DNA of 64,000 nt, taken from Octopus vulgaris. Its lineage: Eukaryota. The notes below the pieces were generated by a model. It was not told the origin of the DNA. It did no database searches and was given only the letters and a program-made list of their open reading frames with translations. How positions within the stretch are numbered: the first letter of the stretch is position 1; each line of letters starts with the position of its first letter. Shown in pieces: positions 4,909-63,184 of the stretch. The translations under genes were made by a program, and so were the position numbers. The stretch lies in assembly GCA_951406725.2 (NCBI GenBank), contig OX597817.1:160704001-160768000 (forward strand), written 5' to 3'.

Positions 4909-7900
4909 GTTAGTTCAAAGTTTGACATTGACATTTTTTATTTCATTTCTCTTATATTTATTTCCCTTTTTGTCTGTGAAAAATATTCGTGTTGACTTAT
5001 TTATGATTTTGATCTTTGATTTACTTTGTTTTCGTATATTTACTGTAGATATAACGTCTGTAGCAAAGCCAGAGTTAAAGCAGACATCGATAAATAGGAC
5101 GGTGTCACATTCATGCATGCAAGGGCATAAGTAACTAAACTAAAAAAAAAAGCCCAAATTGGATATCAAAAACGCGTCTTTGGCTTAATTTACAAAAGTG
5201 TTACGCTATATTATAATCTCTTTATAATGATGGTGGATGATTTTGAAAATTATCAGAAAATCAGACATTCCGTGAGGGGATACGGTCGATTTCTCGTAGC
5301 GTAAATTTAGATGAAACTGACAGTATCGTTACAGTGTCGGACGAAATACTGAGCAGCATTTCTTCTAACTTAACGCTCTGAGTTCAGACACCGCAGGGGT
5401 CGATAAAATAAGTACTAGATGAGCACTGTAATCGATTTACCCCATCACCCGAAATTGCTGGCTCTGTGTCGAAATTCAAAACCCATATTTCGATGAAACT
5501 GGCGAAGGTAAAGAATACGCACACCCAAGGTTTAAGGTTTGGGGTTAGGGTTACGCCAAAAAACGGGTTGTGTGTGCATATTCTTTACTTCCGTCGATGA
5601 AACTTAATATTGTAATTCGTTTAGACCATGGCTTGCCAACCTGAGACCCGCTGGTCGCATGCGGCCCGATTGATATTTTCTTGAAATGGGTTTATTTAAA
5701 CAAACATTTTTAAAATTTTATCAAAAATTAGAGATTGTAATGAAAAGTAAAAAAGAAAGATAGTACTGTTTTTGCAATGATATTTCATGTTGAACCAACG
5801 ATCATTCATTCATTATTGTAATAATAGCATAAGAAAGCAAAATGCTTTCAATTCTGTCAGTATACGAGCAGCCCTCAAAAGACTTTCTGTGATGAAAGTG
5901 GCCTGCAATAAATTCGAGTTGGTCAGGCCTGGTTTAGACCAACTTTTTGGGGGCGGGGAGTAAAATAAAGTAAATTATTTAATAGAAAATCTAATAAAAC
6001 AAAAATATAAAATTGGTGCTGTAGAAAAATGTTTTTATATATCAGTCAGAGCCTTCTTCACAGTGTTATAGGCCTCTGGGAAAAATCAATGTACTGGGTA
6101 CTACATACATAGATCATTATTGGACCCCTATAAGGACCCTGGGTAACTGCCCAGTGTGCCTATGCCTTAAAATAGCACTGATTTCAGTATTAACCCTTTT
6201 GTTGCCATATTTCTGTTGAGATGCTCTGTGTTTGTTTCAATTGATTTTAAATATAACCAAGAATTTAGTAAAATAACTTACTTATCATTAACCCAGTGTT
6301 AGAAACATAAATTGTGAATAAGGTTTGGTGGAAGATTTTACTTAAGAACTTTTGAATATAAGACAGAGGTGGTTTCAGCCAGGTTGGTATCGAAAGGGTT
6401 TAAAGGACTAAACTGTTTGATAATGAAAGTAAATAAATGATTTCTGTATTGTCACAATTATCATCATCGTTTAACATCTGCATTCCATGCTAGCATGGGT
6501 TAGACGATTTGACTGAGGACTGGTGAACCAGATGGCTGCACCAGGCTCCAGTCTGATCTAGCAGAGTTTCTACAGCTGGATGCCCTTCCTAACGCCAACC
6601 ACTCCGAGAGTGTACTGGGTACTTTTACGTGCCACGGGCACGAGGGCCAGTCAGGCAGTACTGGCAATGACCATGCTGAAATGGTATTTTTTACGTGCCA
6701 CCTGCACAGGAGCCAGTCCGGTGGCACTGGCAACAACCTCACTTGAATGTTTTTCACGTGTCACTGGCACAAGTGCAAGTAAGGCGATACTGATAACGAT
6801 CATGATCAAATGATGCTTTTTACGTGCCACCGGCACGGATGCCAGTTAGCCACTCTGGCAATATCTTGCAAAAGAAAAAAGTACAAAATTACCTTATTTT
6901 TATGGTTACACCTGATAATTGGGTTTAATCTTCTTACTAACAATTTGCTTGTTTGTTATTGACAAGAGATTTTTTTTAAAAAAACATTTCAGTAAAAAAG
7001 AAAAAAAAACTTAACATATTCAGTTCTATTATTTAACTGTCAACTGCAATGTGATTGAATAATTTTTCAGTTCAACTAAGCCTCTTGTTATCTTCCAATT
7101 TGACATGTTTAAACAGCAATTTCCTCTAAAATAAGAGAAGTGATTTGATTTTCTCCTCATGGCCAGCAGTAAAATAGGAGAAATTATGTGATTCCTTTCA
7201 ACAACCACTGAAATTACTCAAAGCTAAATCAGTCACCAGATCACTGAAGAGATCTCAGCTGGAAGTTCCCATAAAGACTTGAATGTTTGGATATTTACCT
7301 TTTGACCAACAGATTTAAAAAATAATTTTTTGTAACTAAACACTTTCAAACTTCGTATATTGGCAGAATGTGTCACATAAAACATCTTTTACTCTTGGCG
7401 TTGTTGAGAAAATTCTGTATTTTGGAAGTTGTTTCTTATTAAAGTTGTCATATTTCTGTAATTTCAACTAATCAATGACGTGTATTCAGCTGAATAAAAT
7501 TACTGCCATTGTTTGTCAACAACTTCCGGCAGTGTACATTTCGTTTGTCACTGTTATTTATGACATCGTTCGTGTGTTTGTACTGGTTTTAACTTTAAGG
7601 TTTTAGGGTTAGAGTTATGGAAAAATGAAACACGAACGATTGTGGTGGTGCCATGAAGTAAACATGCTTCAGACACACTCGTTTATTCATACTAACGTAA
7701 CTGAGAGGAAATATGTCATAAATAACAGTGACAAACGAAATATACACTGCCGGAAGTTGTTGACAAACAATGGCAGTAATTTTATTCAGCTGAATACACG
7801 TCATTGATTGGTTGAAATTACCGAAATACGACAACTTTAACAAGAGACAACTTCCAAAATACAGAATTTTCTCAACAACACTAAGAGTAAAAGATGTTTT

Positions 7901-12200: not shown

Positions 12201-15200
12201 TATAAATGAATATAACTATGTATAAAAATATATGTATAAGTATAAATATATAATGTATATGACAGTTTAAAAGTTTTGAATTAATTATTTAAAGCATCTT
12301 ATGATTGTTTCACAGAAGAGTTGTCCCTTTAATGAAATCCTATATTGATAAGCATTTAAAGACAACGCTTCTGCTCTTCAGAGATATAAAATTTGAATTC
12401 TGTATAACAGAATCTCTAACTATGTAATAAACTCTGTTTCTTTATTTATTTGTTCTTCCTATTGTGACTTTTGCATTATGATTTTCTTCCATCTCCAGCT
12501 GCCAATATATGAACCGGCTCCAAAGAAGTATGTCTATCAGTTTGTACCTTCTGAGCGAAATATTTTGCAGAAAGGAATTGGAAGTGTACGCAGGTTCTTT
12601 GCAGAATATCAAGAATCAATGAAGGTATGGAAGATGATTCTTTGTCTTCTGCCATTTTCATCAATGACATTCTAAAAATAAGCAATCTTATCATTGAAAT
12701 CTCAAAGCTACGTGGTAAGGCATTATTAATTCAAAGTAATGTGAATAAAGAAGCATTACATTTGACAGAATAATCCGAATGCTACAGAGTTAAAGTACTG
12801 AATTATGGTCAGGAAGACTTTGAGTTCAATTCACATCAGTGGAATTGAGGAGACAGAAACTGTACTGAAGCCTGTTGAGGATTATAACTGTCCTTAAGTG
12901 GTAGACTTAACCACTCAATCTGTTTAACACCTCCGCCTGACCCTTTGGTGCATTTAGCAGAGTGCACTCTTTTGATGCATTGAACCAGGAAGACTTACAA
13001 TAAAGTCCTGGTGGTTGCTGCTGCACTTCATCTGAATAAGCCATAAGAATATTGGCAAAATCTTTGTAAAATTGAGGATACATCTTCATCATCATCATCA
13101 TTTAACATTCGCTTTCCATGCTAGCATGGGTTGAACGATTTGACTGAGGTCTGGCGAACCAGATGGCTGCACCAGGCTCCAATCTTGATCTTGCAGAGTT
13201 TCTACAGCTGGATGCCCTTCCTAACGCCAACCACTCCGAGACTGTAGTGGGTACTTTTACGTACCATCAGCACGAGGGCCAGTCCGGCGGTACTGGCAAC
13301 GGCCACACTCAAATGGTGCTTTTTATGTACCACCCACGCCAGTCCAGCGGCACTGGCAATGACCTTGCTTGAATGTTTTTTCACCTGCCACCAGCACAAG
13401 TGCTAGTAAGGCAATGCAGGTAACGATTACGCTTGAATGGTGTTTTTAACATGCCTTCAGCATGGAGACCAGCTTGTTGCTCTGGCAACGATCTCACTCG
13501 TATGGTACTCTTAGTGCTCCACTAGCATGGATGCCAGTCATCGAATTTGATTTCAATTTCACTTGCCTCAACAGGTCTTCGCAAGCAGAGTTTAGTGTCC
13601 AATGAAGGAAAGGTACGCATAAGTAGGCTGGTTACATCCCTGGCATAGGCCACAAGGTTATGGTCTCACTTGCGCTTGCCGAGTCTTCTGCAGCACAGCA
13701 TATTTCCAGAGGTCCTGGTCACTAGTCAACTGCATGAGTTGTGATTTTATATGGCTCGCCAGGGGTTACACAACTAACTGTCTATGTGTCATAAGGCTTA
13801 TTCAGTTGGGACCCATCAAACCAAATGAAATTGCAGTCGTGCCTGATACCAGTGTTGAATAACTGGCACTTGTGATGGTGGCACTTAAAAAGTACCCTTC
13901 AAACTTTAGGCCACACTAAGGCAGTGACAAGTGACTGAGACCTTTGACTCGGTCACTTCATGCTCCAGAAGACCTGTCAAGCCAAGTGAAATCACAGTTG
14001 TGGCCAATGCTGGTGTTTTGTAACTGGCACCTGTACTGGTGGCATGTAAAAGGCACCCACTACACTCTTGGAGTGGTTGGCATTAGGAAGGGCATCCACT
14101 GTAGAAACCATACCAAATCAGATTGGAACCTGGTGCAGCTCACCAGTTTTCAGTCAAACTGTCCAACCCATGCTAGCATGGAAAATGGACATTAAATGAA
14201 GATGATGATGATGTTGACTCACCTGGAGTTAAACAGCAACAACAATAACATAGAGCCTTTTTTGTTATTTACAGAATTTCTCAGAGAAAGTGTCATATAA
14301 ATGGGAAGTTTCCAAGGCCCACACTTTAGGTGAGTATTACCTTACACTCAGACCTTAATTTCAATGAGTGATATGCTACACTCAAACCCTCAATTAATTT
14401 TACCTTGAGACAGTCATACTTTTAACTGATACACATCAGGACGTTTGTGTTTTTTTACATAAACATTATAGGCCCAGGTGTGGCCATGTGGCAAGAAGTT
14501 TGCTTCCCAACCACATGGTTACAGTTTCAGTACCACCATGTGGCACTTTGGGCAAGTGTCTTCTGCTTTAGCCCTGGGTTGACCAATCCTTGTGAATGGA
14601 TTTAGTTGACATAAAACTGAAAAGATGTCCAGTGTGTGTGAGAGAGAGAGAAAGAGGGGGAAATAAAGAGATTTTGGATGAGAGAACTGAAAGAGATTTT
14701 CTGAAGTACAAGGGTGAGTCAAAAAGTGATGCCATTTTGTTTAGGACAGGTATAACTACCAACACAGGAACATATATCATACATTAAAATGAAGTTTGTC
14801 CTCTGTGGATCACATCCCTACTCCTCATCATAGTCACCGTTTCTATGTTCCACCCTCGAATGAGAGCATGTATCCCTGCCCCATAAAATTCTGTTGACTG
14901 TTCTTTGAGCCATTTCTTCACTACAGTTTTCACGTCCACATCACTGGAATAATGTTTGCCCCTCAAACCCTCTTTCATGGGGCCAAAGGGATGATAGTCC
15001 AGTGAAGAGGAAGTGAAAACTGTAGTGAAGAAGTGGCTCAAAGAACAGTCAATAGAATTTTATGGGGCAGGGATACATGCTCTCATTCGAAGGTGGAACA
15101 TTGCTATTGAGAAAAACAGTGACTGTGTTGAGGAGTAGGGATGTGATCCACAGAGGACCAGCTTCATTTTGATATATGATACAGTTTCCTGTGTATCATA

Positions 15201-18200: not shown

Positions 18201-21200
18201 TGCAGCCTCCCTCTGCTACCCAAAACAGGCAGCTAATGTCACCTATTCTGCATATGATGGAGTTGTTTCTCAAAGCTGCAGACTGTGGAAATTCTTAACG
18301 GCACCACCACGTATGTATAACTTTGCAATCTTAACCGTGCTGAATATATTATTGGCTGTGGCCTAAATTAATTAACTCTTAAGTAGAACAATGAAAAGAC
18401 TCATATGGTAGACAGAAACTGAAAGAAGACTGTCATGTGTATATATGTGTGTGTGTGTGCATGTATGTGTGCAAGCATACATGTGTTGGTGTGTTTGTTT
18501 AACATTGTCCAAGCAGAGCAGCTGCTACTGTTGGAAACCCAGAGTAAATCTGCAGTATTCAAGTTGTCCACTAAAAAACAAGGTGTGACCCTCAGATTTA
18601 TCTTCCTACTTATACCTATTTCTTTACTACCCACAAGGGGCTAAACACAGAGGGGACAAACAAGGACAGACAAAGGTATTCAGTCGATTACATCGACCCC
18701 AGTGCGTAACTGGTACTTATTTAATCGACCCCGAAAGGATTGAAAGGCAAAGTCGACCTCAGCGGAATTTGAACTCGGAACGTAACGGCAGACGAAATTC
18801 CGCTAAGCATTTCGCGCTGCGTGCTAACGTTTCTGCCAGCTCACCACCGTGCTTCCTACTTATACCATATCTCTGATTAACCAAGGTCCTTACTGTTTAA
18901 TATGCATTGATCAATTGTATAGAATACAATATGACAATCTGGCTCTTTCCACTGTCGGCCTATTTTTGTCTGCCCATAAACTCTACTGTAGGTGGACTGA
19001 ATCAGAGTGCTATAAGAGCTACAACTTTTACAAGTTCTTCTGCACTTATTGATTGTTGGTTCTGTATATCCTAGCATCATGTAACATCAACAGCTGTCAA
19101 AATGGTTGTGTTTCAAATAGATTCAAATCTCCTGTGTTGTCCCTACAGCTGCATGTCCACCTGAGCCTGTCAAAGAAACAGCAGTGAAAGAAGAAAAAGC
19201 TCCTGCACAGAAATCAGACGGGAAAAATGTTGTGGTAAGTCGTCCTTTAAAATTCTTTACTTGTTTACATGGAATCATCGTTTAACGTCCGTTTTCCATG
19301 CTAGCATGGGTTGGACGGTTCAACCGGGGTCTGGGAAGCCAGGAGGCTGCATCAGGCTCCAGTCTGATCTGGCAGTGTTTCTACAGCTGGATGCCCTTCC
19401 TAACACCAACCACTCCGTGAGTGTAGTGGGTGTTTTTACGTGCCACCGGCGCAGGTGCCAGGGGAGGCTGGCAATGGCCACGATTGGTTGGTGCTTTTTA
19501 CTTGCCATCGGCACGGAAGCCAGTCAAGGTGACTCCAGCTTCCAGGTAAACTTATACATTAAGTTGAAGCTAAGTTGTATCTTAGCTTAAGATTGTAGTA
19601 ATACAGGGGCAGTATAAACAATATAAGTGGTTGTTTACACATAGAAGTTGATTTCAGTTCTGTGGCACTGCAATACCCCTTGTCAAGTGTCTTCTACTAC
19701 AACCCTGGGCAAACCAAAATATTATTGAGTGGATTTGGTGGATAGAAACTGAAGAAAGCCTGTTGTGTTTGTGTTAGTTTCTCGTTGCATTGACACAGTG
19801 TGGTAGCCATAAATGGGTGTCACTTTGGTGTCCTTTGTTTCCAATCTTTTGTGAAATCATGTCTGATCATGCAGAAAATATTGCCTTGCTTGGAAACAGG
19901 TGATGATTGGCAACAGGTCATTTCACTGGAGAAATTCTGTCCAGCCCAGGTAAGCATGGAAAAATCATCACCATCATCGTTGAACATCCATTTTCCATTC
20001 TGACACGGGTTGCACAGTTTAACTGAAGCTGGTAAGGCCACCAGCCTCCATTGTCTTTTCTGGCATGGTTTCTACAGCCTGATGCCCTTCCTGGTGCCAA
20101 CTATCCACTGAATGTACTGGGTGCATTGTATGTGGTGGCACCAGCACCAACATCAGCCGTTCAAGAATTTGGACCTGGAGATATCCATTTCCAGCGACTT
20201 CGAGGGCCACCTCCCAGTGGTGTCGGGCGTCAACGAAGAGCCCTCAACTACAAGACGACCAGTTTTTTTTTTTTTTTCCCAAGGTCTGGGGTCTCCTGCC
20301 CCTAAGCCCTAGACCATCACCTAATCACCCTTACCCGTCTTGTTGCTTAACAACAACACCAACAACATCAATTCTGCTATGGTGAATGAGCCTTTGTGAG
20401 TGCCGCACGGTGCCAATGCTGATATGTTACTTAGTAATATTAATTATTATTTTGAATTATCTTGTTATCTTTATGAAAATCATCTTTATAAAGTCTGGTG
20501 CCCTACATAACACTTTTTTTGTCTTCATGTGCCATGCCTACAGGTGTTGACAACCACAGACCTCCACTTTCTTTTATCCTATACACTGCTTAGCAAATTC
20601 ATCCAATATCTTCTATCCCAGTTTTCCCTCTCTTCTTTTCACCAAGTGTTCATGGCCTTGTCTTCTTATATGGTGCCCAATAAACTTAGCCTGTTGCCTC
20701 TTTCTGCTGGTTCCTGCTCATCTAAGGGCTTAGACATTTGTCTCCCTCTATATAGGATATTTTCAGCTATCATCTAAGGAACCACATCTCTGCAACATTG
20801 ATAAGATTTTGCGGTTGTTGTCAGTCACAGGATTATACACAAGGGCTCTCTACCCTTACAACACTTTCCTTCACTCTTATTGCTATCTTCTTTATTTAAT
20901 AATTTGTTTGATCTCACGAAAAGCAACTTTAACTTCTTCAATTGTTGATTTAATTTTTTTTATGCTGCATAGCACTAACCATAGATGCAATAGAAGTATA
21001 TGTTTTGGAGTAAGTAAAATTTATACTATTTCATTCCTTATCTAGATATACATGACTGAAACTTGTGTGCTTGTGATTATATTGTAACTTCAGTTATTTT
21101 ATGATGAAGTGTTGCACACTTCTGAGTTTTATTCCAGCAGTTTTTTAATACATTTTTTACTGTTTTTTAGTCTTTTAAAAGGTTGTTTTTGTGTCCTAGA

Positions 21201-29439: not shown

Positions 29440-32400
29440 TTGTGCACACACATTTGTGTGTCTGTGTTTGTCCCCCCAACATCGCTTGACAACCAATGCT
29501 GGTGTGTTTACATCCCCGTAATTTAGCGGTTTGGCAAAAGAGACCGATAGAATAAGTACTAGGCTTGCAAAGAATAAGTCCTGGGGTCGATTTGCTCGAC
29601 TAAAGGCGGTGCTCCAGAATGGCCACAGTCAAATGACTGAAACAAGTAAAAGAGAGTAAAAGAGTATAACTCTAACAGGTAATGTTATTAGTAACAATGT
29701 ACCTCAGATATTTAGGCAAACTATTAATACATTTTGCTTGTTTTTCTTAACATGGGGCTTAAAATGAAATTCTGAATAAACTTTAACGTGATAAAATTTT
29801 GATAGAAATTTTAATTTTAAAATGGCAAGTTTCATGCAATATGAGGTTGTATCAAGAGAGAACAATTAAATGTTATGGCAGCCAGTGTCTTGTTTCATTT
29901 TCTTCAACACTCTCTTAAAATAAGTCATGGCCCACTTTATAACGTGTGTGAGTGTTTGTACAAAAGCTGACGTGGTGGGCATATGTGCAAGAGAATGCAT
30001 TTGCAAAAGAGAGTGCATGTGAGAAAAAAGCAGGTGATGAAGAATGTGTGTGCAAGTGTGTGTGCATATGTGTGTGTGTGCATGTGTTTGTGTGTGCATA
30101 TGTGTATGTGTGCATGTGTGTTTGTGTGTGCATATGTGTGTGTGCATATGTGTATGTGTGCATGTGTATGTGTGCATGTGTGTATGTATGCATGTGTATG
30201 TGTGCATATATGTGTGTGTCTAAGGTAGTATGAGCATGCATTAGTATGTGCGTGAACAGAGAAATTTAAATGGAACTTACCAGGAAAATAACCAGGTGTA
30301 GCCTGTCCTATATACATATATATACCAATAAAACATAAAATTTCTCCAAGAGCATATAACCATTGTATGGAAAACATAACAATGATACAGATGAAGGTCT
30401 GAAAGAGAAGAATTTCATAAGAATAATTCAAATATTTGGTTACTCAATAACAACAGCTTCTTTAAATTTATTATATACATTCATCATCACACCTTCAGTG
30501 GTATGACTATAGATTTAGGAATGTTTGTTTAGTGGTTTATTGATTGACTGATTTCTTACATTAGTACAGCACTTCAGATTTTTACAGTAAGCTTATGAGA
30601 GCTCAAAATCTCTCGTGGAGGCGCCATCCAACTAAAATGCAAATATATGGGAAATTACCACCTGTGTCATCTCTTGTGAAGGGTAGGAGAGTCCAGTTTG
30701 CTGGACATTGTTGTAGAGCTGAAAAAGAAGTAATTTCTACTCTTCTCCTCTGGAAGCCATCTACTCGCAACACCAGAGGGCGCACACTCTCCTACCCTGA
30801 TGTAATCTCCAGGGATACAGGCATCCAGCAACAGGACCTCCGTAATGCTATGATGGACCGTGAAGTCTGGCGCAACATGGTAAATTCCATTGTCTCGACC
30901 ACGGTCGAACAATGATGATGATGATGTGAGATGTTCAAACCTTTTTCAGTTCATTAGCAATGTAAGAAAATAAAACAAATAAAACAGTTGCATCAGGGGA
31001 TTGAAACAGGATTACAGAATTGAATTGCACAGATTATGATGGTTTTGTAGGCAATTTTTAATGATTTTTATAAGTTAAACTGCCTGCATCAGTTGTTGAC
31101 TGCCATGACACTGCATCCTTTAAGGCCCTCATGCTTCCCGAAATCCGTCGAAACTACACCTGATTATATATACACTTTAGATGAGTTGTAGTGCACCTGA
31201 GCACTGTACACAATTATTATTATTATTATTTTATTATTGTATTGTTGCCAGAGTGGCTAGCTGGCTTCCGTGCCAGTGGCATGTAAAAGGCACCATTCGA
31301 GCATGATCGTTACCAGCGTTGCCTTACTGGCACGTGAAAATACATTCGAGTGAGGTCATTCCCAGTACCGCCTGACTGGACCCCGTGCTAGTGTCATGTA
31401 AAAGCACCCACTACACTCTCGGAGTGGTTGGCGTTAGGAAGGGCATCCAGCTGTAGAAACTCTGCCAGATCAAGATTGGAGCCTGGTGCAGCTATCTGGT
31501 TCGCTAGTCCTCAGTCAAATTGTCCAACCCATGCTAGCAGGGAAAGCGGACGTTAAATGATGATGATACAAGACAATCAGCCAAGAGGTTGGTGTTTCAT
31601 ATCTTGTGACTAGTAGTGTGCTGGGAGTATGGTCGAAAAATTCAACTCTGAAATAGTTCAATTCACTTAGATGTAAATAGATGCTACAAGTTAAGAGGAA
31701 CACAACCCTTTAAGAAGTGGCAACTGGTGTAAAATTAATAGGTGGTTTGTTAACTTGCAATACTGATTTCAACTTCTGTCTGTCAGGAGAAAACCACTCC
31801 AGTGTCTCTCTCAGACCAGAGTTTCTGAATTATCTCAGCTTGGTTTAGTATTAGATCTGTATTCTGGTTCTGATTACTGGGAAAGATTTAAAAAAGTAAA
31901 TCTCAAGATCAAATTCCTAGCCACTTTCTAAGTCTCTCCCAGTAATCAGAACCAGAATACAGATCTAATACTAAACCAAGCTGAGATAATTCAGAAACTC
32001 TGGTCTGAGAGAGACACTGAAATAGCTTTCTCTAGACTGACAGAAGAAATTGAAATCAGAATTGTGTTGAACTCACAGCTTAATTCTGGTAATTTTAGTA
32101 ACAAGCTGTAAGGGTTATATTTTCTTTTCTCTTAATCTATTCTGCTGCTGCAGAAAGGGAAGTTAGTCACTGTATGAGCAATTCTCGGTCCTTTATATCA
32201 TTCTGTCCATTTCTGTACAAAGTCTCACAAGACTACATAACATTTTTGTGGAGAATATAAAATGACTCAATGCATTGACAAATTGAAAATATCAGCTTAT
32301 CTATAACGAACCTGACTATAACATAAGTGGAGAAAATTTCTGAGAAAATGTCCCAGTATTGAACAAAATGGTAAGAAACAAGACCTTTCAAGCTTGTAAC

Positions 32401-35400
32401 ATCAACAGAAAAAAAATGCATTTAAAGAGAAAGAAAAGAGGAAGAGAAATTGACTTACGCCTATTAAAGATATCCAACGGTTACATAGCAAAGAGTACCA
32501 GGATTGGGGTTGTTGATGAATTTCTGTATTGGGTCCTTTTTGGTCAACTGAAAATAAATGGCAAAATGTTAGGGTCAACTTCTGCTGGTATTGCTGAATT
32601 ATTTATAGGATGATATATGATTTCTTATGCTAATCAATTGGATCAACTGCAATATATACCTGGTACTTATTTTATAAATCTGAGCAATATTTCATTTCAT
32701 AACATAGAGCACAGAAACTAAATACCACAAGGTATTTTGTTGATAGCTCTATTGTTTCTGTTTCTCACATATTCCTCTTTTGATGAATATAGTTATATAC
32801 TAAATTTCACTTCACATGGACGTAAAAAGCACCATCCAAACGTGGCTGATGCCAGCACTGCCTTGACTGGTTTCTGTGCCGGTGGCACGTAAAAAGCACC
32901 AACCAATCATGTCTACTGCCAGCCTCCCTTGGCACCTGTGCCGGTGGCACGTAAAAAGCACCTACTACACTCACAGAGTGTTGGCGTTAGGAAGGGCATC
33001 CAGCTGTAGAAACACTGCCAGATCAGACTGGAGCTTGGTGAAGCCTCCTGGCTTCCCAGACCCCGGTCAAACCGTCCAACCCGTGCTAGCACGGAAAACG
33101 GACATTAAACGATGATGATGATGATGATGATACTGCTCAACTAAGCTGATTACTCTAATAGACTAACTTAACACTGGTAACAGAATAATAATTTGCACTA
33201 AAGTGAGACTTAGCTTAAAGTCTAAAATGACAGTAGAATGCAGTAAAGTTTACTAAACTTACAAATGATAGTTTATAAGTCATGGACAACCTTTTTCCAT
33301 GAAGCAGACCGCATGATACTTGGCTCACCATCAAGCAGACTGCACTACTAAAAAACTTCAAAGTGATTTTTCATGGCACACCATTCAGAAAGAATGCAGT
33401 TTGTCCATGACTGGTTTATAATAATGACATTCCATAATCATGTATAAGATAGATGAAATAATTTACCATAGCATTGAATGTTTAGTTTGTTCATTTTTAT
33501 ATAAAATTAAGTAACAATGACTTATATCAGAGACTCTCAAACTGATAAATAGCAGCTCTCCAACCATATATTAGTTAAAGATATTTTTTCACCCAATTGA
33601 CTGGAACTCTATTGATAGCAGTGATGAAGGTTCCAATAGATCAAATCAACAGAACAGCCTGCTTGTGAAATTAGCATGCAAATGGCTGAGCACTCCACAG
33701 ACACGTGTACCCTTAACATAGTTCTCAGGGAGATTCAGAGTGACACATAATGTGACAAGGTTGGCCCATTGAAATACAGGCACTACTAATTTTTCTCAGC
33801 TAAGTGAACTGGAACAACGTGAAATAAAGTGTCTTGCTCAAAAACACATGCCACTGGTAATCAAATTCATGACCTTACAATTGTAAGCTGAATACCCTGA
33901 CCCCTAAGCCATGCACCTGTTAATAACAAGAAAATAAAACAGAGCTTGCTTCCATATAATTCTTCACTCTTCACTGAACAGGTTTAAAAAATTTTAAGCT
34001 ATCTTTTATTAATCATGGCAATTTGAAGGTAGTGAGCAGGTAGAAACATTAGCATGCTGGGCGAAATGCTTAGTGGTATTTCGTCTGTCTTTACGTTCTG
34101 AGTTCAAATTCTGCCAAGGTCGACTTTACCTTTCATCCTTTAGGAGGTCAATAAATTAAGTATGATTTGCATACTGGGGTCAATATAATTGACTGGCTCC
34201 CTCCCCCCAAAATTTCAGGCCTTGTGCCTAGAGTAGAAAAGATTAATCAGGACAATTTGTCCACACCTTTCCCGACCTTACAGTTTGCTCCTGCCATGAG
34301 AAACACAGGTTAAGAGAATGGGAATGATTGAGAGAAAAATATTTACTCATTGCAGGTTTTGGTTCCACTAAAAGTTTGGTTGTATCTCCTGCATCTTCTT
34401 TGGCATCAGTAACTTTATCTGCATTTTGCTTTTCTAAATGTCTGGTAGTTATATCAAAAACTGCTTCTTCAGGTGTAGTAGGAGAATTTTCATCCAACTG
34501 TTGCCTTGCAAGATGGTGTTGACCACGATGAGTGAGGCGTTCAGGGAAAAGTTTGTCTAAGTCAGTAGCAAAACGCTGGAAAGAATCTTTGTGTATAGTC
34601 TGTTGCTTAGCTTGGTGGGTGGAACCGTAATCTGATGATTCTTTACCGTCCAATTCTGATTTTAAAGTGTTCTCCACAGGCTTTACAGAGTACTTGGCAT
34701 CTTGCTGCTGACGTCTGTCATAGCTCATTGCTAGTGCAAAGTAGGAATAACAAACAGCAGCGTAGGTGAACATGAAAGAGGTGGTGACAACTGGAGCCAA
34801 AGTATTTACATCACCAACGACAACAAACAGAAGAATCACTAATGTCACCACAACAAGAGCATAGACAGGAACCTTGTTAGCACCTTTCTGGAAATAGGGG
34901 AAAAAAAATAACTAGTCAACAAATATCTACCAATGGAACATAGATACAGAGACACACATACATACATGCATACATACATACATATGCATGCATACAAACA
35001 TACCCACACATGCATGCATACGCACACACACACATACATATATACATACATATGCATACAAACATACCCACACATGCATGCATATACATACACATACATA
35101 CATACATACATACATACATACATACATACATACACGCACATATACAAACACATACATACATATATTTACAATGGTTGATAGAATTATAAAGAATAGAAAA
35201 GTTTGGTATAAGAGTTGAATAAATAAATAATCTTTTGTTTTTTTTAATTTCTAATAAAATTTTAACATGAAATAAAGTAAGATGCTATCAGTATACCAGA
35301 TTACAAATCACAAGGTTATGAACTCAAACCTTGCTGTATTACAATTCTCCATTCAACATAAATTATAGACACAAGTCCTATTTTACTGTTTAGGTTTTTG

Positions 35401-44674: not shown

Positions 44675-47600
44675 TGAAATGTACATAGAGAGCAAATGAT
44701 ATAAAATGCATCTTGTGTTCATCATAATTTTTTCCCAAATTTCCTTTGTTTACCATAACTAGTAATAATGCTAAGTACAGTGGTAACCACACCACTTTAT
44801 AGGAAGTAGAGAGGGTGATGATGCTCTATGTGGAGCACTAAATTCACCAGTAGCAACTGTACATCTTTCTGTACACACAAGAAACTGCAATACACACACA
44901 CACACACCGTCTCTTCAAACTTCAATGACTTACTGCACTACTTACTGATTATTACATACACAGACAGCCACAATGCATGAGATGATTTATATAAAATAAC
45001 CTTGCTTACCTAAAAGCAGCAACACAACAGCAGTAGCAATCCCTCGTGCAATCCATGGATTAGAGTCTTCCATTAAACCCATAATGGATTCTCCAAAACC
45101 CATTACTGATAAGGAGCAACCAGCAGCCTGTAATAGAGTTATTAATTAATAATTTTCTACCACATATTCTCTACATAGAGTGTAGAGATGTTTGACATTT
45201 CTTATTTACAATCATCATCATCATCATCATTTAACGTCCACCTTCCACGCTAGCATGGGTTGGACGATTTTGACTGAGGGCTGGCAAACCAGACGGCTGC
45301 ACCAGGCTCCAATCTTGATCTAGCAGAGTTTCTACAGCTGGATGCCCTTCCTAATGCCAACCACTCCGAGAGTGTAGTGGGTGCTTTTTATGTGCCACCG
45401 GCACGGGACCAGTCAGGCGGTACTGGCAATGACCTCGCTGGAATCTTTTTATACATACCACCGGCACAGGTGCCAGTAAGGTGACGTTGGTAATGATCAT
45501 GTTTGAATGGTGCCCTTTTATGTGCCACCGGCATGGAGCCAACCAGTATTTTCTTTATTATATGGCATGGTGCCTGTTGTTATTTCTTGTTGTCTGTATT
45601 CGTAATTCTATACCATGTTCTCTGTTTTTTTTGTTTGTTTGATTGCTATTTCTAGCACATTGATTGACCATGAAGATTTGGCAGTTATTTCTAGCATACC
45701 AATTGACTCTCTCTAAGTTTGTTGCAGTTTCTCCCTTTAAGAATTGTTACCTCATGAACTGAAAAAAAATTCTATCCAAAGTAGAAATTCAAATTGATAA
45801 TTACCTGTGAGAAGCAATACATTACACCAACACTGCCACCAATTCTGCCTCCAAGTACATGTGAGATTAGGAAGTAGACTCCTCCACCATCCATCTTACA
45901 CCGCTCGCATACTCCAATGGCACTCAGGGACACAATTAAAACAACTCCCGATGAAAATAAAATAACTACAATAGCCAACCAAATCCCAGTATTGCCCTGA
46001 AAGAAAGAAATTTTTTTATTACAATTTTCATTCCAATGAGGTCGTATTTTATTTCTGAAAGACAGAATTTGAAATAAAGAGAAAAACTAAGATGATAATC
46101 CCACACTTTTTGTTCACTGTTTGGCATCTCTTTCTGAATGTATACATGTGTCGGGTATTAGGTTTTTAGAAACAAATGTGTTTACTGAAAGATATTCTTG
46201 TTACCAATGTCCACTGAAGTATGGAAGTAAAAACAAAACCTTTTCTTCTTTATTTAGCCAAGCAAATTGTTGTAAAACCACAGTAATAAGCCAATCAATG
46301 ATGTATATACATTAAGTATGATACATAGATGGCTATTGAAATACAAGCTATAATAACAGTACAACACAATAGCAGTAGTAGGATTTGAACTTCTGACTAT
46401 ATGGTCAATCGTTTGGCATCTTAGCCTTACAGCTAATAATAATAATGTGATGTATATGACTGTGAACTAGTGCTTAACTAGTGAGTTCCAGTTGTACTGC
46501 AGTTGTTGACTTGCATCACTATGCAAAGTGTTTGACTAAATCATAACAGGTTTTGCATAAATTTCACGAGTGGTTAGAAATAACAAAAGTTCTATGAATA
46601 TGAACAATTGCTAATACAATAACTAATCGATTCATGTTGAAATTGAAAGGCAATAAAAACACAGGAAACAAATTGTTTCCTTTGTCCAGTCTTATGAGAG
46701 AGTGTGTATAATCAAATATTTTGAGTCAGGTATATTACTGGTACATATTTTATTCCAGAAGAATAAATGAATGAATGAATGAATGAATGAATGAATGAAT
46801 GTATGTATGTATGTATGTACATACGTATGTGTGTATGTATGTATAGTTGACTCCATGTTACTGGACTTATATTTTACTCTTAAAATCCATAGCTTTGTGT
46901 AGAAGGAGATGATTAAGAGGAGAAAATTATTCGCATGTGTCTTTGTATTATACAGTCATCATCATCATCATCATGGTTGTATAATAACTCATATTCACAA
47001 CTGAGACATCACAGAAATATTTAATATATTTCTTAGTCATTGAGAAGGTTTTAAACCATTGCAGTTCTGGTTCTGAATAAATAATATTAATAAAGCCATA
47101 AAAGCCACCATCAGACAGGATAGCAGTGCACAAGGAAAAAACAATTATAATTCCATTTTTCAGACATACATTTAATGTGATTGATTTTCTTGGTTATAGG
47201 GTAAATACCATAAAGTAACATGTATTGGTTTAACACATTGACAAAAGGGTACTTTCCTATTTTTTCTTTTTATTAAAGGATTAATAAATAAACTATTTCA
47301 CTTGTGAGATGGGTGTAATAGATGATTGACAGATTTTCAGAATAATAGTTATCATTACCTCAAGGAGTAAAGTACCGGTAAAAATTTACCAGAAAAGTGT
47401 ATGAAAATGGAGGGTGAAAATAAAAAATATTTAAAAAGTTCTTTTACAGCAGGAAACAATCTTCCAATTCTTTATCTTTTTCTTTCTCCATGAGGTAGTG
47501 ATAGCTATTCTGAAAGTCATTGATCAATTATCACACCTGTAATAGTTGATTTCTTATTTATTAATCCTTTAGTAAATCTAAAATTGACTATCAATAATAG

Positions 47601-55950: not shown

Positions 55951-57624
55951 AAGACAGACAAAATACCCCTAAGCAGTTTGTCCAGCAAGCTAATGGTTCT
56001 ATCAGCTTACTACCTTGGGGATGGGTAATAATAAATACTTATAAAGGGTAAAGGTAGCTGAACATTTTGGTAAAGCTAAGTCACTTTCATAAATACATTG
56101 GAAAAATATTTTAGAATATTCAATTAAGGTTAAAATAAAAGAGTTTACAATAAAACAAAATAAAAGCATATATCAATCTTTACATATGTTTGTGGATAGC
56201 TGCATAAAGAAGCACTGAGCTCTAACTGTGGAGAGTACATGTGGAAGGGGTAAACCTAGGAAGACATAGAACAAAGTGGTAAGAATGGATCTTCAGATGC
56301 TGGGCCTCACTGAGGAAATAACAAGGAACTGGGAGATGTGGTAACTTGCTGTACTTGATAAGACTTGTCAAGCTAAGTAAAATCGCAGTCTGCCACATAT
56401 ACAGGCTTATCCTTTCAGGTGCCAGTTCCACTTAAAAGGCACTCATGCCAATGTTGCATTAATGCACCCTTGCTGATGCTGCATAAATGCACCCATGACG
56501 GTGACATATAAAAAGCACCCAGCACACTCTATTAAGTGGTTAGCATTAGGAGGCACACAAAGCCATAGAAACAATACCACAATAGACAGCTGGGACTCTG
56601 AACAGCTCCCTGCTAGCCAGCTCCATGTCAGACCGTCCAAACCATGGCAACAAGGTGACCGGATATTAAATGATGATGATGATGGCATACATATATGTTT
56701 GTATGTATGTATGTATGTATGTATGTATGTATGTGTGTGTGTGTATCATCATCATCATCATCATTTAAGATATAAAGGACCTACAATTGTCATGGGTACT
56801 GCTCATCTCTCCAACTACATCATAACAGAACCCAAACCCAAGCATATACATCTGCTCCTACCCCCCCCACACACACACATACACACACATTAACATATAC
56901 ACCCACTAGCATAAATTATAGAGTTTACGAAGCATAAATAGCTAAAGTCAACTCTATTGATTAAATCTTTACAACAGCTGTACAAGAAATCACAACTTGG
57001 GTTACACTTATGTCAAATGACAGAGCAATAATTAATTTTTACACACACACACACACACCACACACAACACACCTGGTTATTGTCAGAAGACATTAATTTT
57101 CATGATGAAATTCAAAGCCAAGATTAGCTTAAGCAACAAGTTACATGATGGAGTAGAAATTAAAATAATTGCTGACTATTATAGACAATGAGTTTAAAAA
57201 TCAATGTATTGGCATGAATAAACCATCCACAAAATATTCTATGTAGGATTGAGCCAAGTAATTGGTAACTGTGTTTTGGATTTGTTTTCCTAATGATAGT
57301 ACAGAAGTACCAAATTGATATCAATGATAATGGTGAATCCTCTGAACTTGAGACAGTGTAACCTCTTCCACTCTACTCAACATGCATACATATTTATGTA
57401 TGCTTTCTTCTGTTTATAATTATTTGACATCTTCCTGTTAGGAAAAAGTTAGTTTTTAACAGAGATAGATAGCTGCATCAATTACTGGAATGTAGAAAAA
57501 AAAAAAAAACAAACTTCCATTTTAAACTTGAGAAATGTTTTCCATATTTTAACTGTTCTGATTACAGATTGTATTTGTAATGTGCAAATTAGACGGACAG
57601 ACAGACAGATACTGCAACGGAAAG

Positions 57625-58698: not shown

Positions 58699-59372
58699 TT
58701 AAACAAATTTGTATGCTACCTATATAATATGTTTCCAGTTCTTATATCATAGTACATGTAACCACAAAACTAACATAAAATATACAGCAGAGGAAAAGAT
58801 GTTTGCTTTTTAAGTTCTACAGGACATCAAAGGACAATGCATGCATCATCATCTTTTAGTACACATCTTTCCATGCTTGCATGGGTCAAACAGAATTTGT
58901 TAAAGCAAAGTTTCTATAGCTGGATGCCCTTCCTGTTACCAAACCTCACCTGTTTTCAGGCTAGGTAAAATAGCCCCATGACCAGATATGTTTTTCACGG
59001 AAGACTGGCAATGACCAACCTTGCTTGTATGACAGTGATGCTCGTTTACAACCATTACATGATTTCAAGACAAGTGTACACAGATGCACACACACACACA
59101 CACATACACGCATGCACACACATATGTATATACATACATATACATATGATGGGATTCTTCCAATTTCTGTCAAACAAATCCACCCATTCACAAGGCTTTG
59201 GTCAACCCAGGGCTATAGTAGGAGACATTCACCCAAAATGTCACATGGTAGGATTGAATCCAGGACTACATGGTTATAAGCAAGCTTATTTACCACACAG
59301 CCACACCAGTGCCTATACATACAAATTTGATGGTATCCAAGACACTAATTACTAATAAGCAAGCCTTCCCTC

Positions 59373-59696
59373 GTACCCTCACCCTGACCACGGCTTTCAA
59401 CCGATTCTGATGAAACTTGACACACATAGCCAATGTCATAATTCAAAACTAACGCAGCGAAAATTTTGAAAAGTTCCCCCAGTTCTGAAAAAAATCGATA
59501 AATTCGACATGGGGTCGAGAATCAGAAACCCAAACCACAGACCGTCTAGGGGACGCAACTCCACCTTTTTTAACTCTCAAAAAAATTTACCATCATTTTT
59601 TCCCCATTTTTTTGCTATTTTTTGGCTATAACTCTCTAAAAATGCTTTATAGTTATTTCCCTTACAAACCTGAGCAACGCCGGGCGATACTGCTAG
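59373..59696 (+). mobile_element. Helitron-like element, 5'-truncated, flanked by a 24-bp direct repeat
   Basis: Reverse complement of ~39092-39420; ends CTAG|T. Confidence 0.82.
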
Positions 59697-61903: not shown

Positions 61904-62313
61904 TATAGACTCTTTGTTTATATAAGTGATACTGAAAAGTTCCTGGCTCAAAGGGTATAGTGAAAGGCTTGGTTGGAGGCCCAACCTACTAAGTTATTTT
62001 ACAAGGCTTAGAAAAACTGAACGACCACTGCAATAAGTGTGTAAATCTGAGTGGAGAATATGTTGAATAAAATTATAATTAACTCAACCATATTCATATA
62101 GGAAGGGCATCCAGCTATAGGAACCATACCAAATCAGTTTGGGACCTAGTGCAGCTCCCTAGCTTACCAGTTTTTAGTCAAACCACCCAATCCACGCTAA
62201 CATAGTAATAAATATCTGTAAATATAAAACCATCCAGATTTCTGAGTACCTTATTTCTTCTAATATATACATATATATATCTATATCTATCTATCTATAT
62301 ATATATATATATA

Positions 62314-62612
62314 TACATACAAAATTTAAAGGACTGCCCACTAAAAGTGGACGGTCAACATGCTAGATATAGACGTCAAATCACTATTTTCCACAAAGAA
62401 TATGTTCTCAAATAAACAATCGAAACTGATCGGTACATGGGTAGGCGTTTTTATTTCGTATATTTTCATTTGTGTTGCTTATTTTTAATGCTTTGGATTG
62501 TGCTGAGTTTTTATTTGAGAACATATTCTCTGTGGAAAATAGTGATTTGACGTCTATATCTAGCATGTTGACCGTCCACTTTTAGTGGTCAACCCTTTAA
62601 ATTTTGTATGTA
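62314..62612. mobile_element. MITE with ~100-bp near-perfect TIRs, inserted next to (TA)n
   Basis: 62314-62416 is the reverse complement of 62511-62612; TA at both ends. Confidence 0.8.
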
Positions 62613-62976
62613 AAAATATTTTAATCTTCGGATTTTTTAATATGCTGGGCCACTAGTTTTAATTGATTAATATCAATTTCTACCCTTAAGCACCATTTGA
62701 CTGTGGCCGTTGCCAGCCTCGCCTGGCCCCCGTGCCGGTGGCACGTAAAAAGCACCATTCCGACGGGTCTGCCAGCCTCCTGGCACCAGTGCCGGTGGCA
62801 CGTAAAAAGCACCCACTACACTCACGGAGTGGTTGGCATTAGGAAGGGCATCCAGCTGTAGAAACACTGCCAGATCAGACTGGTGCAGCCTCCTGGCTTC
62901 CCAGACCGCGGTCGAACCGTCCAACCCATGCTAGCATGGAAAACAGACATAAAACGATGATGATGATGATGACAAT

Positions 62977-63184
62977 GATATATATATATATATATATAAT
63001 ATAAATAATATATAAATATAGGCATATATACATACATATATGTATATACCTACATATATGTATATACATATGTATATATACATATATATGTATATATACA
63101 TATATATGTATATACATATGTATATATACATATATATAGATAAAGGACATAAAAAAATCGTTGAACACAATGAGAAATGAAGAC

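Follow-up and report, generated by a model that had tools for sequence, protein, structure and literature searches.

A tandem 26-nt core in the 3' UTR of an abundant octopus LINE, with a predicted compact H-type pseudoknot fold

Here we describe a 26-nt core that stands in 1 to ~40 copies in the 3' UTR of a high-copy LINE of Octopus vulgaris and that is predicted to fold as an H-type pseudoknot, with stem 1 joining positions 1-5 to 11-15, stem 2 joining positions 7-10 to 23-26, and an A-rich loop 3. The core array is part of the LINE 3' UTR, and thus of LINE origin, and as a very abundant module of that UTR it is real; comparative support for the compact pseudoknot, drawn from differences between subfamilies, is moderate, and the terminal unit of the array probably adopts this fold. 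We propose, with a probability of roughly 0.45, that the core may give the LINE's own protein an accessory handle on the element's RNA. Two stacked stems of 5+4 or 4+5 pairs, with no loop 2, would let a UAAAAA strand lie along stem 1 in its minor groove, and the resulting protein-binding handle would help the protein load onto the RNA that encodes it; selection would act only in active master lineages, with inserted copies decaying neutrally and slippage generating the upstream copies, on which selection would be relaxed. The ligand is the least secure part of this proposal, the ORF protein being favoured by analogy with the R2 elements of birds and turtles.

In the window, by which we mean the whole 64,000-nt stretch of contig OX597817.1 that was analysed, the motif has nine matches with at most three mismatches, against none in 100 shuffles, and an iterated profile scan finds 22 cores in nine clusters (Table 1). 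Profile scanning of 1.93 Mb of the octopus's own genome detects 1036 cores in 305 loci (120 at arbitrary positions, the remainder picked by similarity) versus a single core in the reversed sequence. An arbitrary sample of 1.2 Mb holds 134 cores and 68 downstream anchors, figures that extrapolate to ~310,000 cores and ~160,000 anchors in the 2.8-Gb genome. The repeat is also present in contigs of three further organisms, where no covariation was gained. A sequence-only reading of the window had placed cores near 62690-62830 and arrays at seven sites; two cores indeed lie in that interval, each behind a GCCAG/CTGGC hairpin and within a 5'-truncated LINE end (62688-62979), and the profile scan recovers all seven arrays plus two more. 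The constant hairpin arms and variable loops described there are likewise borne out, the arms being kept while loops of 4-11 nt differ. The proposed unit of ~50-65 nt with its hairpin suits the hairpin-type arrays, in which spacing is 57-67 nt, but not the cores at 13871 and 14032, which stand 161 nt apart, nor an older family that is a hairpin-free concatemer of the 26-nt core.

Table 1. Core arrays and neighbouring elements in the window, with positions counted from its first nucleotide.
Feature	Position	Strand
5' truncation point; last 7 nt of the cut core (AAGCACC)	62688-62694	+
Hairpin 1: GCCAG, 6-nt loop, CTGGC	62712-62727	+
Core 1: predicted H-type pseudoknot, all nine pairs intact	62731-62756	+
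Hairpin 2: TGCCAG, 4-nt loop, CTGGCA	62770-62785	+
Core 2: terminal (conserved) unit; A1.G15 mismatch leaves 4+4 pairs	62788-62813	+
Short CACTC/GAGTG hairpin (predicted)	62819-62831	+
GGAAGGGCATCC module, second conserved island	62831-62871	+
3'-terminal stem-loop, third conserved island	62921-62943	+
(ATG)n microsatellite tail	62956-62979	+
Family C array, four cores, including the AGTG/CATT copy at 6746-6771	6618-6837	-
Family C array behind an ORF end, five units (four scored, the first degenerate)	13250-13530	-
Family D, two cores 161 nt apart; hairpin still core-like	13871-14057	+
Two cores, absent from the list of the sequence-only reading	19429-19515	-
Family C, two scored cores	31269-31408	+
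Family B, two intact cores	32875-32962	+
Family C, two scored cores and one degenerate	45380-45535	-
Old hairpin-free family, decayed cores, absent from the list of the sequence-only reading	56418-56519	+

Other repeats were seen in the same window. A MITE-like inverted repeat (62307-62619; 115-nt arms, 93% complementary, 83 nt apart) lies just upstream of the core copy, an older, 5'-truncated piece of this LINE's tail, free of cores, occupies 62100-62200 (+), and another two-copy repeat, at 59502 (+) and ~39260 (-), fits a generic pseudoknot descriptor (TTCGAC/GTCGAG with TGGG/CCCA).

In longer copies of the LINE the array sits behind the RT ORF, in agreement with the 3' UTR position first suggested for it, and a young subfamily has many near-identical copies in which an intact endonuclease-RT ORF of 1059 aa stands directly upstream. 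This single ORF matches AP endonuclease (PF03372/PF14529) and then reverse transcriptase (PF00078) above cut-off, and contains a weak PHD-like insert below the Pfam cut-off. From the stop codon the element continues through ~95-150 nt to the array, the module, the terminal stem-loop and the (ATG)n tail, with a structured 3' UTR of ~590 nt. Microsatellite (ATG)n tails and 5'-truncated copies are both observed, as in RTE-clade LINEs, and we provisionally assign the LINE to that clade from its ORF motifs and layout; by analogy with other LINEs, the 3'-terminal stem-loop is likely the RT recognition site. Two near-identical young copies at 116.61-116.62 Mb, separated by ~7.8 kb, share their 3' flank and are either a local duplication or an assembly repeat. 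The LINE copy at 45241-45535 adjoins, on the same strand, an exon at 45809-45897 (-) with a weak AA_permease match (E 0.009, below cut-off) that is presumably SLC12-like. The published octopus element RTE-2_OV, in the part of its description available (PMC9115989), is likewise a single-ORF RTE LINE with a microsatellite tail; it differs in its 1109-aa ORF with a C2H2 finger and its mostly microsatellite 3' UTR, whereas the LINE described here has the sub-cut-off PHD-like insert and the structured UTR.

The pseudoknot had been proposed from individual copies whose variants were thought to keep the pairing, and these copies give it no support. Only 37 of the 134 randomly sampled cores (1.2-Mb sample) retain all nine pairs, and A7 stands opposite C26 in 32 cores of that sample and opposite U26 in two. 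The AGTG/CATT variant at 6746-6771 is a CpG-type G-to-A change, with 35 of the 38 copies of its unit type keeping G, and one of its stem-1 pairs is broken too. CpG decay dominates the differences among inserted copies, and the variants said to keep their pairing mostly reflect neutral decay. Copy-level covariation was discarded as evidence, since copies decay neutrally once inserted. Over all cores there is no A7/T26 association (p=0.15). Double changes across the genome, counted by eye, are complementary in 57 cases at pair 4:12 against ~59 expected (first 100 of 277) and in 16 of 46 at pair 9:24 against ~16 expected, with no covariation at inner pairs in either stem.

Changes between subfamilies, on the other hand, lend the fold better support. 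Typing by flanking sequence alone assigned 802 of the 1026 full-flank cores to 21 types of at least four members, with 224 left out. Interlaced stems, a short loop 1 and a loop 3 whose length suffices to span stem 1, with all nine pairs, are found in 14 of the 21 type consensuses; four of the seven broken ones are 5'-most units, and six of the seven types adjoining the downstream module are intact. Pair 1:15 occurs as C-G, U-G and U-A and, in family F, as A-U, while pair 7:26 occurs as G-C and G-U and, in unit 2 of family F, as A-U. Both A-U states are two-sided changes: A1-U15 in unit 1 of that family (A in 23 and T in 22 of 25 copies) and A7-U26 in unit 2 (A in 21 and T in 30 of 31 copies). 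Family F, the source of both, has two tandem blocks of core plus module, not tandem cores. Position 11 is G, pairing with C5, in 16 types and C, pairing with G22, in five, so that nine stacked pairs form either way. Furthermore, position 6 in loop 1 is C, T, A or G; since all four bases occur there, a 6-bp hairpin is not the conserved fold. The simple CGTGCC-ggt-GGCACG hairpin, which the sequence-only reading had named as the competing structure, is contradicted as the conserved structure by an A or G at this position in several lineages, among them the youngest, whose terminal unit has a G (25 copies) that disrupts the hairpin.

When 16 real copies were compared (two singles and 14 that each stand for one of the 21 types, relatedness uncontrolled), 95.2% of cells were paired versus 92.0 +/- 0.9 in shuffled sets, a value reached by 0 of 500. 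Two pairs in this comparison are two-sided, a count that 85 of the 500 shuffles reach, and one of its two A-U cells at 7:26 is the CpG copy cited above. Some master-level changes break stem 2 (type 169 has A8 and type 50 has A10), and the youngest family, with A1.G15 and C1.A15, forms 4+4 pairs only and fails the nine-pair test. Rough energy estimates that omit tertiary terms are -6.9 to -10.2 kcal/mol for the pseudoknot and -8.6 kcal/mol for the hairpin; nested folding in context gives stem 1 only 0.17-0.40, with unremarkable z-scores of -0.8 to -1.4, and a 4+4 pseudoknot with an A-rich loop, a descriptor chosen after the fact, appears in 8 of 1000 shuffled UTRs. Support is only moderate because the inner pairs never covary and the 5' units decay.

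Compact H-type pseudoknots such as the preQ1-I riboswitch and luteoviral frameshift signals combine a stem 1 of ~5 bp with a short stem 2 and an A-rich loop 3. Unlike the former, the core has no conserved ligand pocket (the junction base is G in most families), and unlike the latter it has neither a slippery site nor an adjoining stop codon; it gives no Rfam match to either. A role in stop-codon recoding is unlikely as well, given that ~95-150 nt separate the stop from the first core. The core also has a local likeness to the pistol ribozyme, in which, according to the part of PMC6101554 available, three adenines (AAA) that follow a CGUGG/CCACG stem dock in its minor groove. The core shares with pistol P1 and J1-2 a CGUG-type stem closed by CACG and then a U-AAA strand, and differs in having no P2, P3, cleavage site or catalytic half, the pseudoknot partner following directly. 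Because the unpaired adenines after the CGUG/CACG stem match this docking part, the knot may be A-minor-stabilised. The analogy for function comes from A-clade (avian and turtle) R2 elements, for which the accessible text of PMC12180492 describes a 3' UTR pseudoknot-hinge-stem bound by the R2 protein, with compensatory rescue. As is predicted for the octopus LINE, a non-LTR element there has a 3' UTR pseudoknot upstream of a terminal stem, diverged in sequence and kept in fold. However, as that text presents it, the R2 motif is single, lies within the last 65 nt and is shown to matter, whereas the octopus core belongs to another clade and another protein, is repeated, is predicted only, ends in the window copy 143 nt from the tail instead of lying at the very 3' terminus, and does not occur in one family that has this tail.

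This last family weakens the earlier suggestion of a role in RT recognition, at least in its essential version. The 28 copies analysed have an apparent tRNA-type head followed by the module and the LINE tail, without a core, and with this LINE as their putative partner the core is therefore probably not the essential RT signal. One member lies in the window at 58800-59150 (-), with an apparent tRNA-type SINE head, (TG)n, module and LINE tail. The module itself is common to abundant short animal retroelements (121 metagenome loci), many of which start at one fixed point ~28 nt upstream of the pattern; none of the 121 loci contains a core at a profile score of at least 12, or an RT that belongs with the module to one element. 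Two models that disagree would make the module another A-rich H-type knot, one of GGUUGG/CCAGCY with GGCA/UGCY (187 of 252 own-genome and 4 of 129 metagenome copies) and one of ACAGG/CCUGU with CCGG/CUGG (39 of 129 metagenome copies). Searches of viral contigs with three patterns gave 0, 2 (unrelated) and 0 matches.

The presence of the core in protein-coding LINEs and its absence from this non-coding family are what a need specific to mRNA would predict, and the pseudoknot may accordingly be real and yet bind a host factor promoting the stability, export or translation of LINE mRNA. The structural evidence serves this explanation just as it serves binding by the LINE's own protein. We think it rather unlikely, with a ligand that is purely hypothetical; moreover, if the resemblance to Deu/Nin SINE domains considered below is homology, the motif serves untranslated RNAs too.

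In the oldest family, whose copies are ~78-80% alike, 26-nt cores without hairpins run head to tail in up to 41.7 copies. In family D the 26 nt preceding the core still agree with it at 17 of 26 positions (7-14 of 26 in younger types), and we infer that the GCCAG hairpin of younger families derives from every second core of the concatemer, perhaps when the A-run became complementary to the 5' arm within its own unit. The arms were then fixed while the loops changed freely, type 185 alone having broken arms. Since the loops are related to one another and derive from the core, a CRISPR-like repeat-spacer interpretation was rejected, as the sequence-only reading had already done. Its further view, that the module was amplified by a LINE, holds only in part: the last, terminal copy is the conserved one, and those upstream resemble duplicates produced by slippage while selection was relaxed.

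Pure concatemers of this length, together with a unit number that varies from 2 to 7 across 41 elements, are also what might be expected if the core were a neutral minisatellite unit whose pairing is incidental and whose internal inverted repeats merely favour slippage. Master-level changes that break pairs, the weak statistics on pairing and conservation, and the lack of inner-pair covariation point the same way. We nevertheless hold this to be unlikely, given the comparison of young and old families, in which the terminal core remains alignable (21 of 26 positions identical, 23 with CpG restored) while adjoining UTR segments drop to 49%, 60% and 68% identity. The module (32 of 36) and the 3' stem-loop (30 of 36) are conserved alongside it. 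Measured against four-fold sites, 9 of 30 of which differ, conservation of the core is modest (p=0.026 with CpG restored, an estimated ~0.16 raw). Positions 1, 6 and 11 account for the differences between the families' terminal cores, and two outer-pair changes are two-sided, neither of which sits well with neutrality.

Two remaining explanations fare worse. The unit might act at the DNA level as an array of transcription-factor sites, as we take GCACGTA to read on its reverse strand as an RCGTG hypoxia-type element and the CACGTA hexamer is retained in most terminal unit types, the youngest included; this is very improbable, with the hexamer lost in F unit 1 and type 174 and both the GGTG/CACC conservation and the two-sided changes left unexplained. 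Least probable of all is that the unit blocks a nuclease in the manner of an xrRNA or cleaves itself as a ribozyme, as the compact, repeated form and the likeness to the 5' half of pistol might suggest: the stem-2 partner directly after the A-strand leaves no room for P2/P3, CUGANGA is absent from the window copy and in the young family opens an ordinary hairpin, and neither a class-model match nor a catalytic core was found for pistol, hammerhead, HDV-like or twister ribozymes. The Rfam search advised in the sequence-only reading gave 0 matches in the window at gathering score and, at E<=10, only tail-derived snoRNA/miRNA noise. Its xrRNA suggestion gains nothing from insertion 5' ends, which in 91 mapped chains show no evident pile-up at one site, in a small and imprecise mapping with many untruncated first units and incomplete references. 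An HDV-like interpretation of the GCCAG hairpin, judged by eye, was dropped because the P1 stem has no partner.

A wider resemblance, again by eye, links the core to the conserved Deu/Nin domains of SINEs, which have a stem starting CCCGT and closed by (G/C)ACG, a T(T/A)AA-rich strand and then (A/T)CCC. In the supplementary sequences consulted, BivaMD-SINE1 (PMC4824008) reads GTGGCACG-TAAAGAACCC against GTGGCACGTAAAAAGCACCC in the octopus core, and EbuSINE2 (PMC5786205) reads TGCCGG...GGTGGACGTTAAAGATCCCAC. As far as those sources go, the domains of BivaMD-SINE1, EbuSINE2 and HaSE1 (the last also in PMC5786205) hold two such modules in tandem, the second ending much like the core. Within the first module, one stem-1 pair changes from G-C to C-G between HaSE1 and EbuSINE2, and a loop pairing changes from CGG/CCG to CAG/CUG between BivaMD and EbuSINE2. 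The domains differ in their tRNA-headed SINE bodies, their longer loops and a second-module stem 2 of ~3 bp in ambiguous register, whereas the core sits behind a LINE ORF and not in a tRNA- or 5S-headed SINE body; exact Deu-type motifs are not enriched in the octopus genome (2 versus 8 in the control; 0 versus 1). It is a doubtful proposal that the core is a minimal second module of the ancient Deu/Nin domain and that domain a pair of A-minor pseudoknots; the likeness could equally well have arisen by convergence on a favoured RNA motif as by common descent. The conservation of such SINE domains is called a major enigma in the available part of PMC5804259, which states that none has been found in LINEs.

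A search of the openly accessible literature, which took in the available parts of PMC13282606, PMC9115989 and PMC4758252, found no description of the motif, nor of any pseudoknot in the 3' UTRs of RTE elements or in the conserved domains of SINEs. Structured 3' UTR signals have been mapped for few LINE clades, and RTE-type elements are candidate gene insertion tools. Since the family is young and intact, the motif is directly testable. The extrapolated ~310,000 copies would put potential RNA structure into many host transcripts of the octopus. Were the Deu/Nin link true, an active LINE that multiplies the domain would contradict the absence from LINEs stated in the portion of PMC5804259 cited above, the domains would be RNA handles for retrotransposition that can be tested in an autonomous element, and the octopus LINE would offer a way into the long-standing question of why SINE bodies are conserved across animals.
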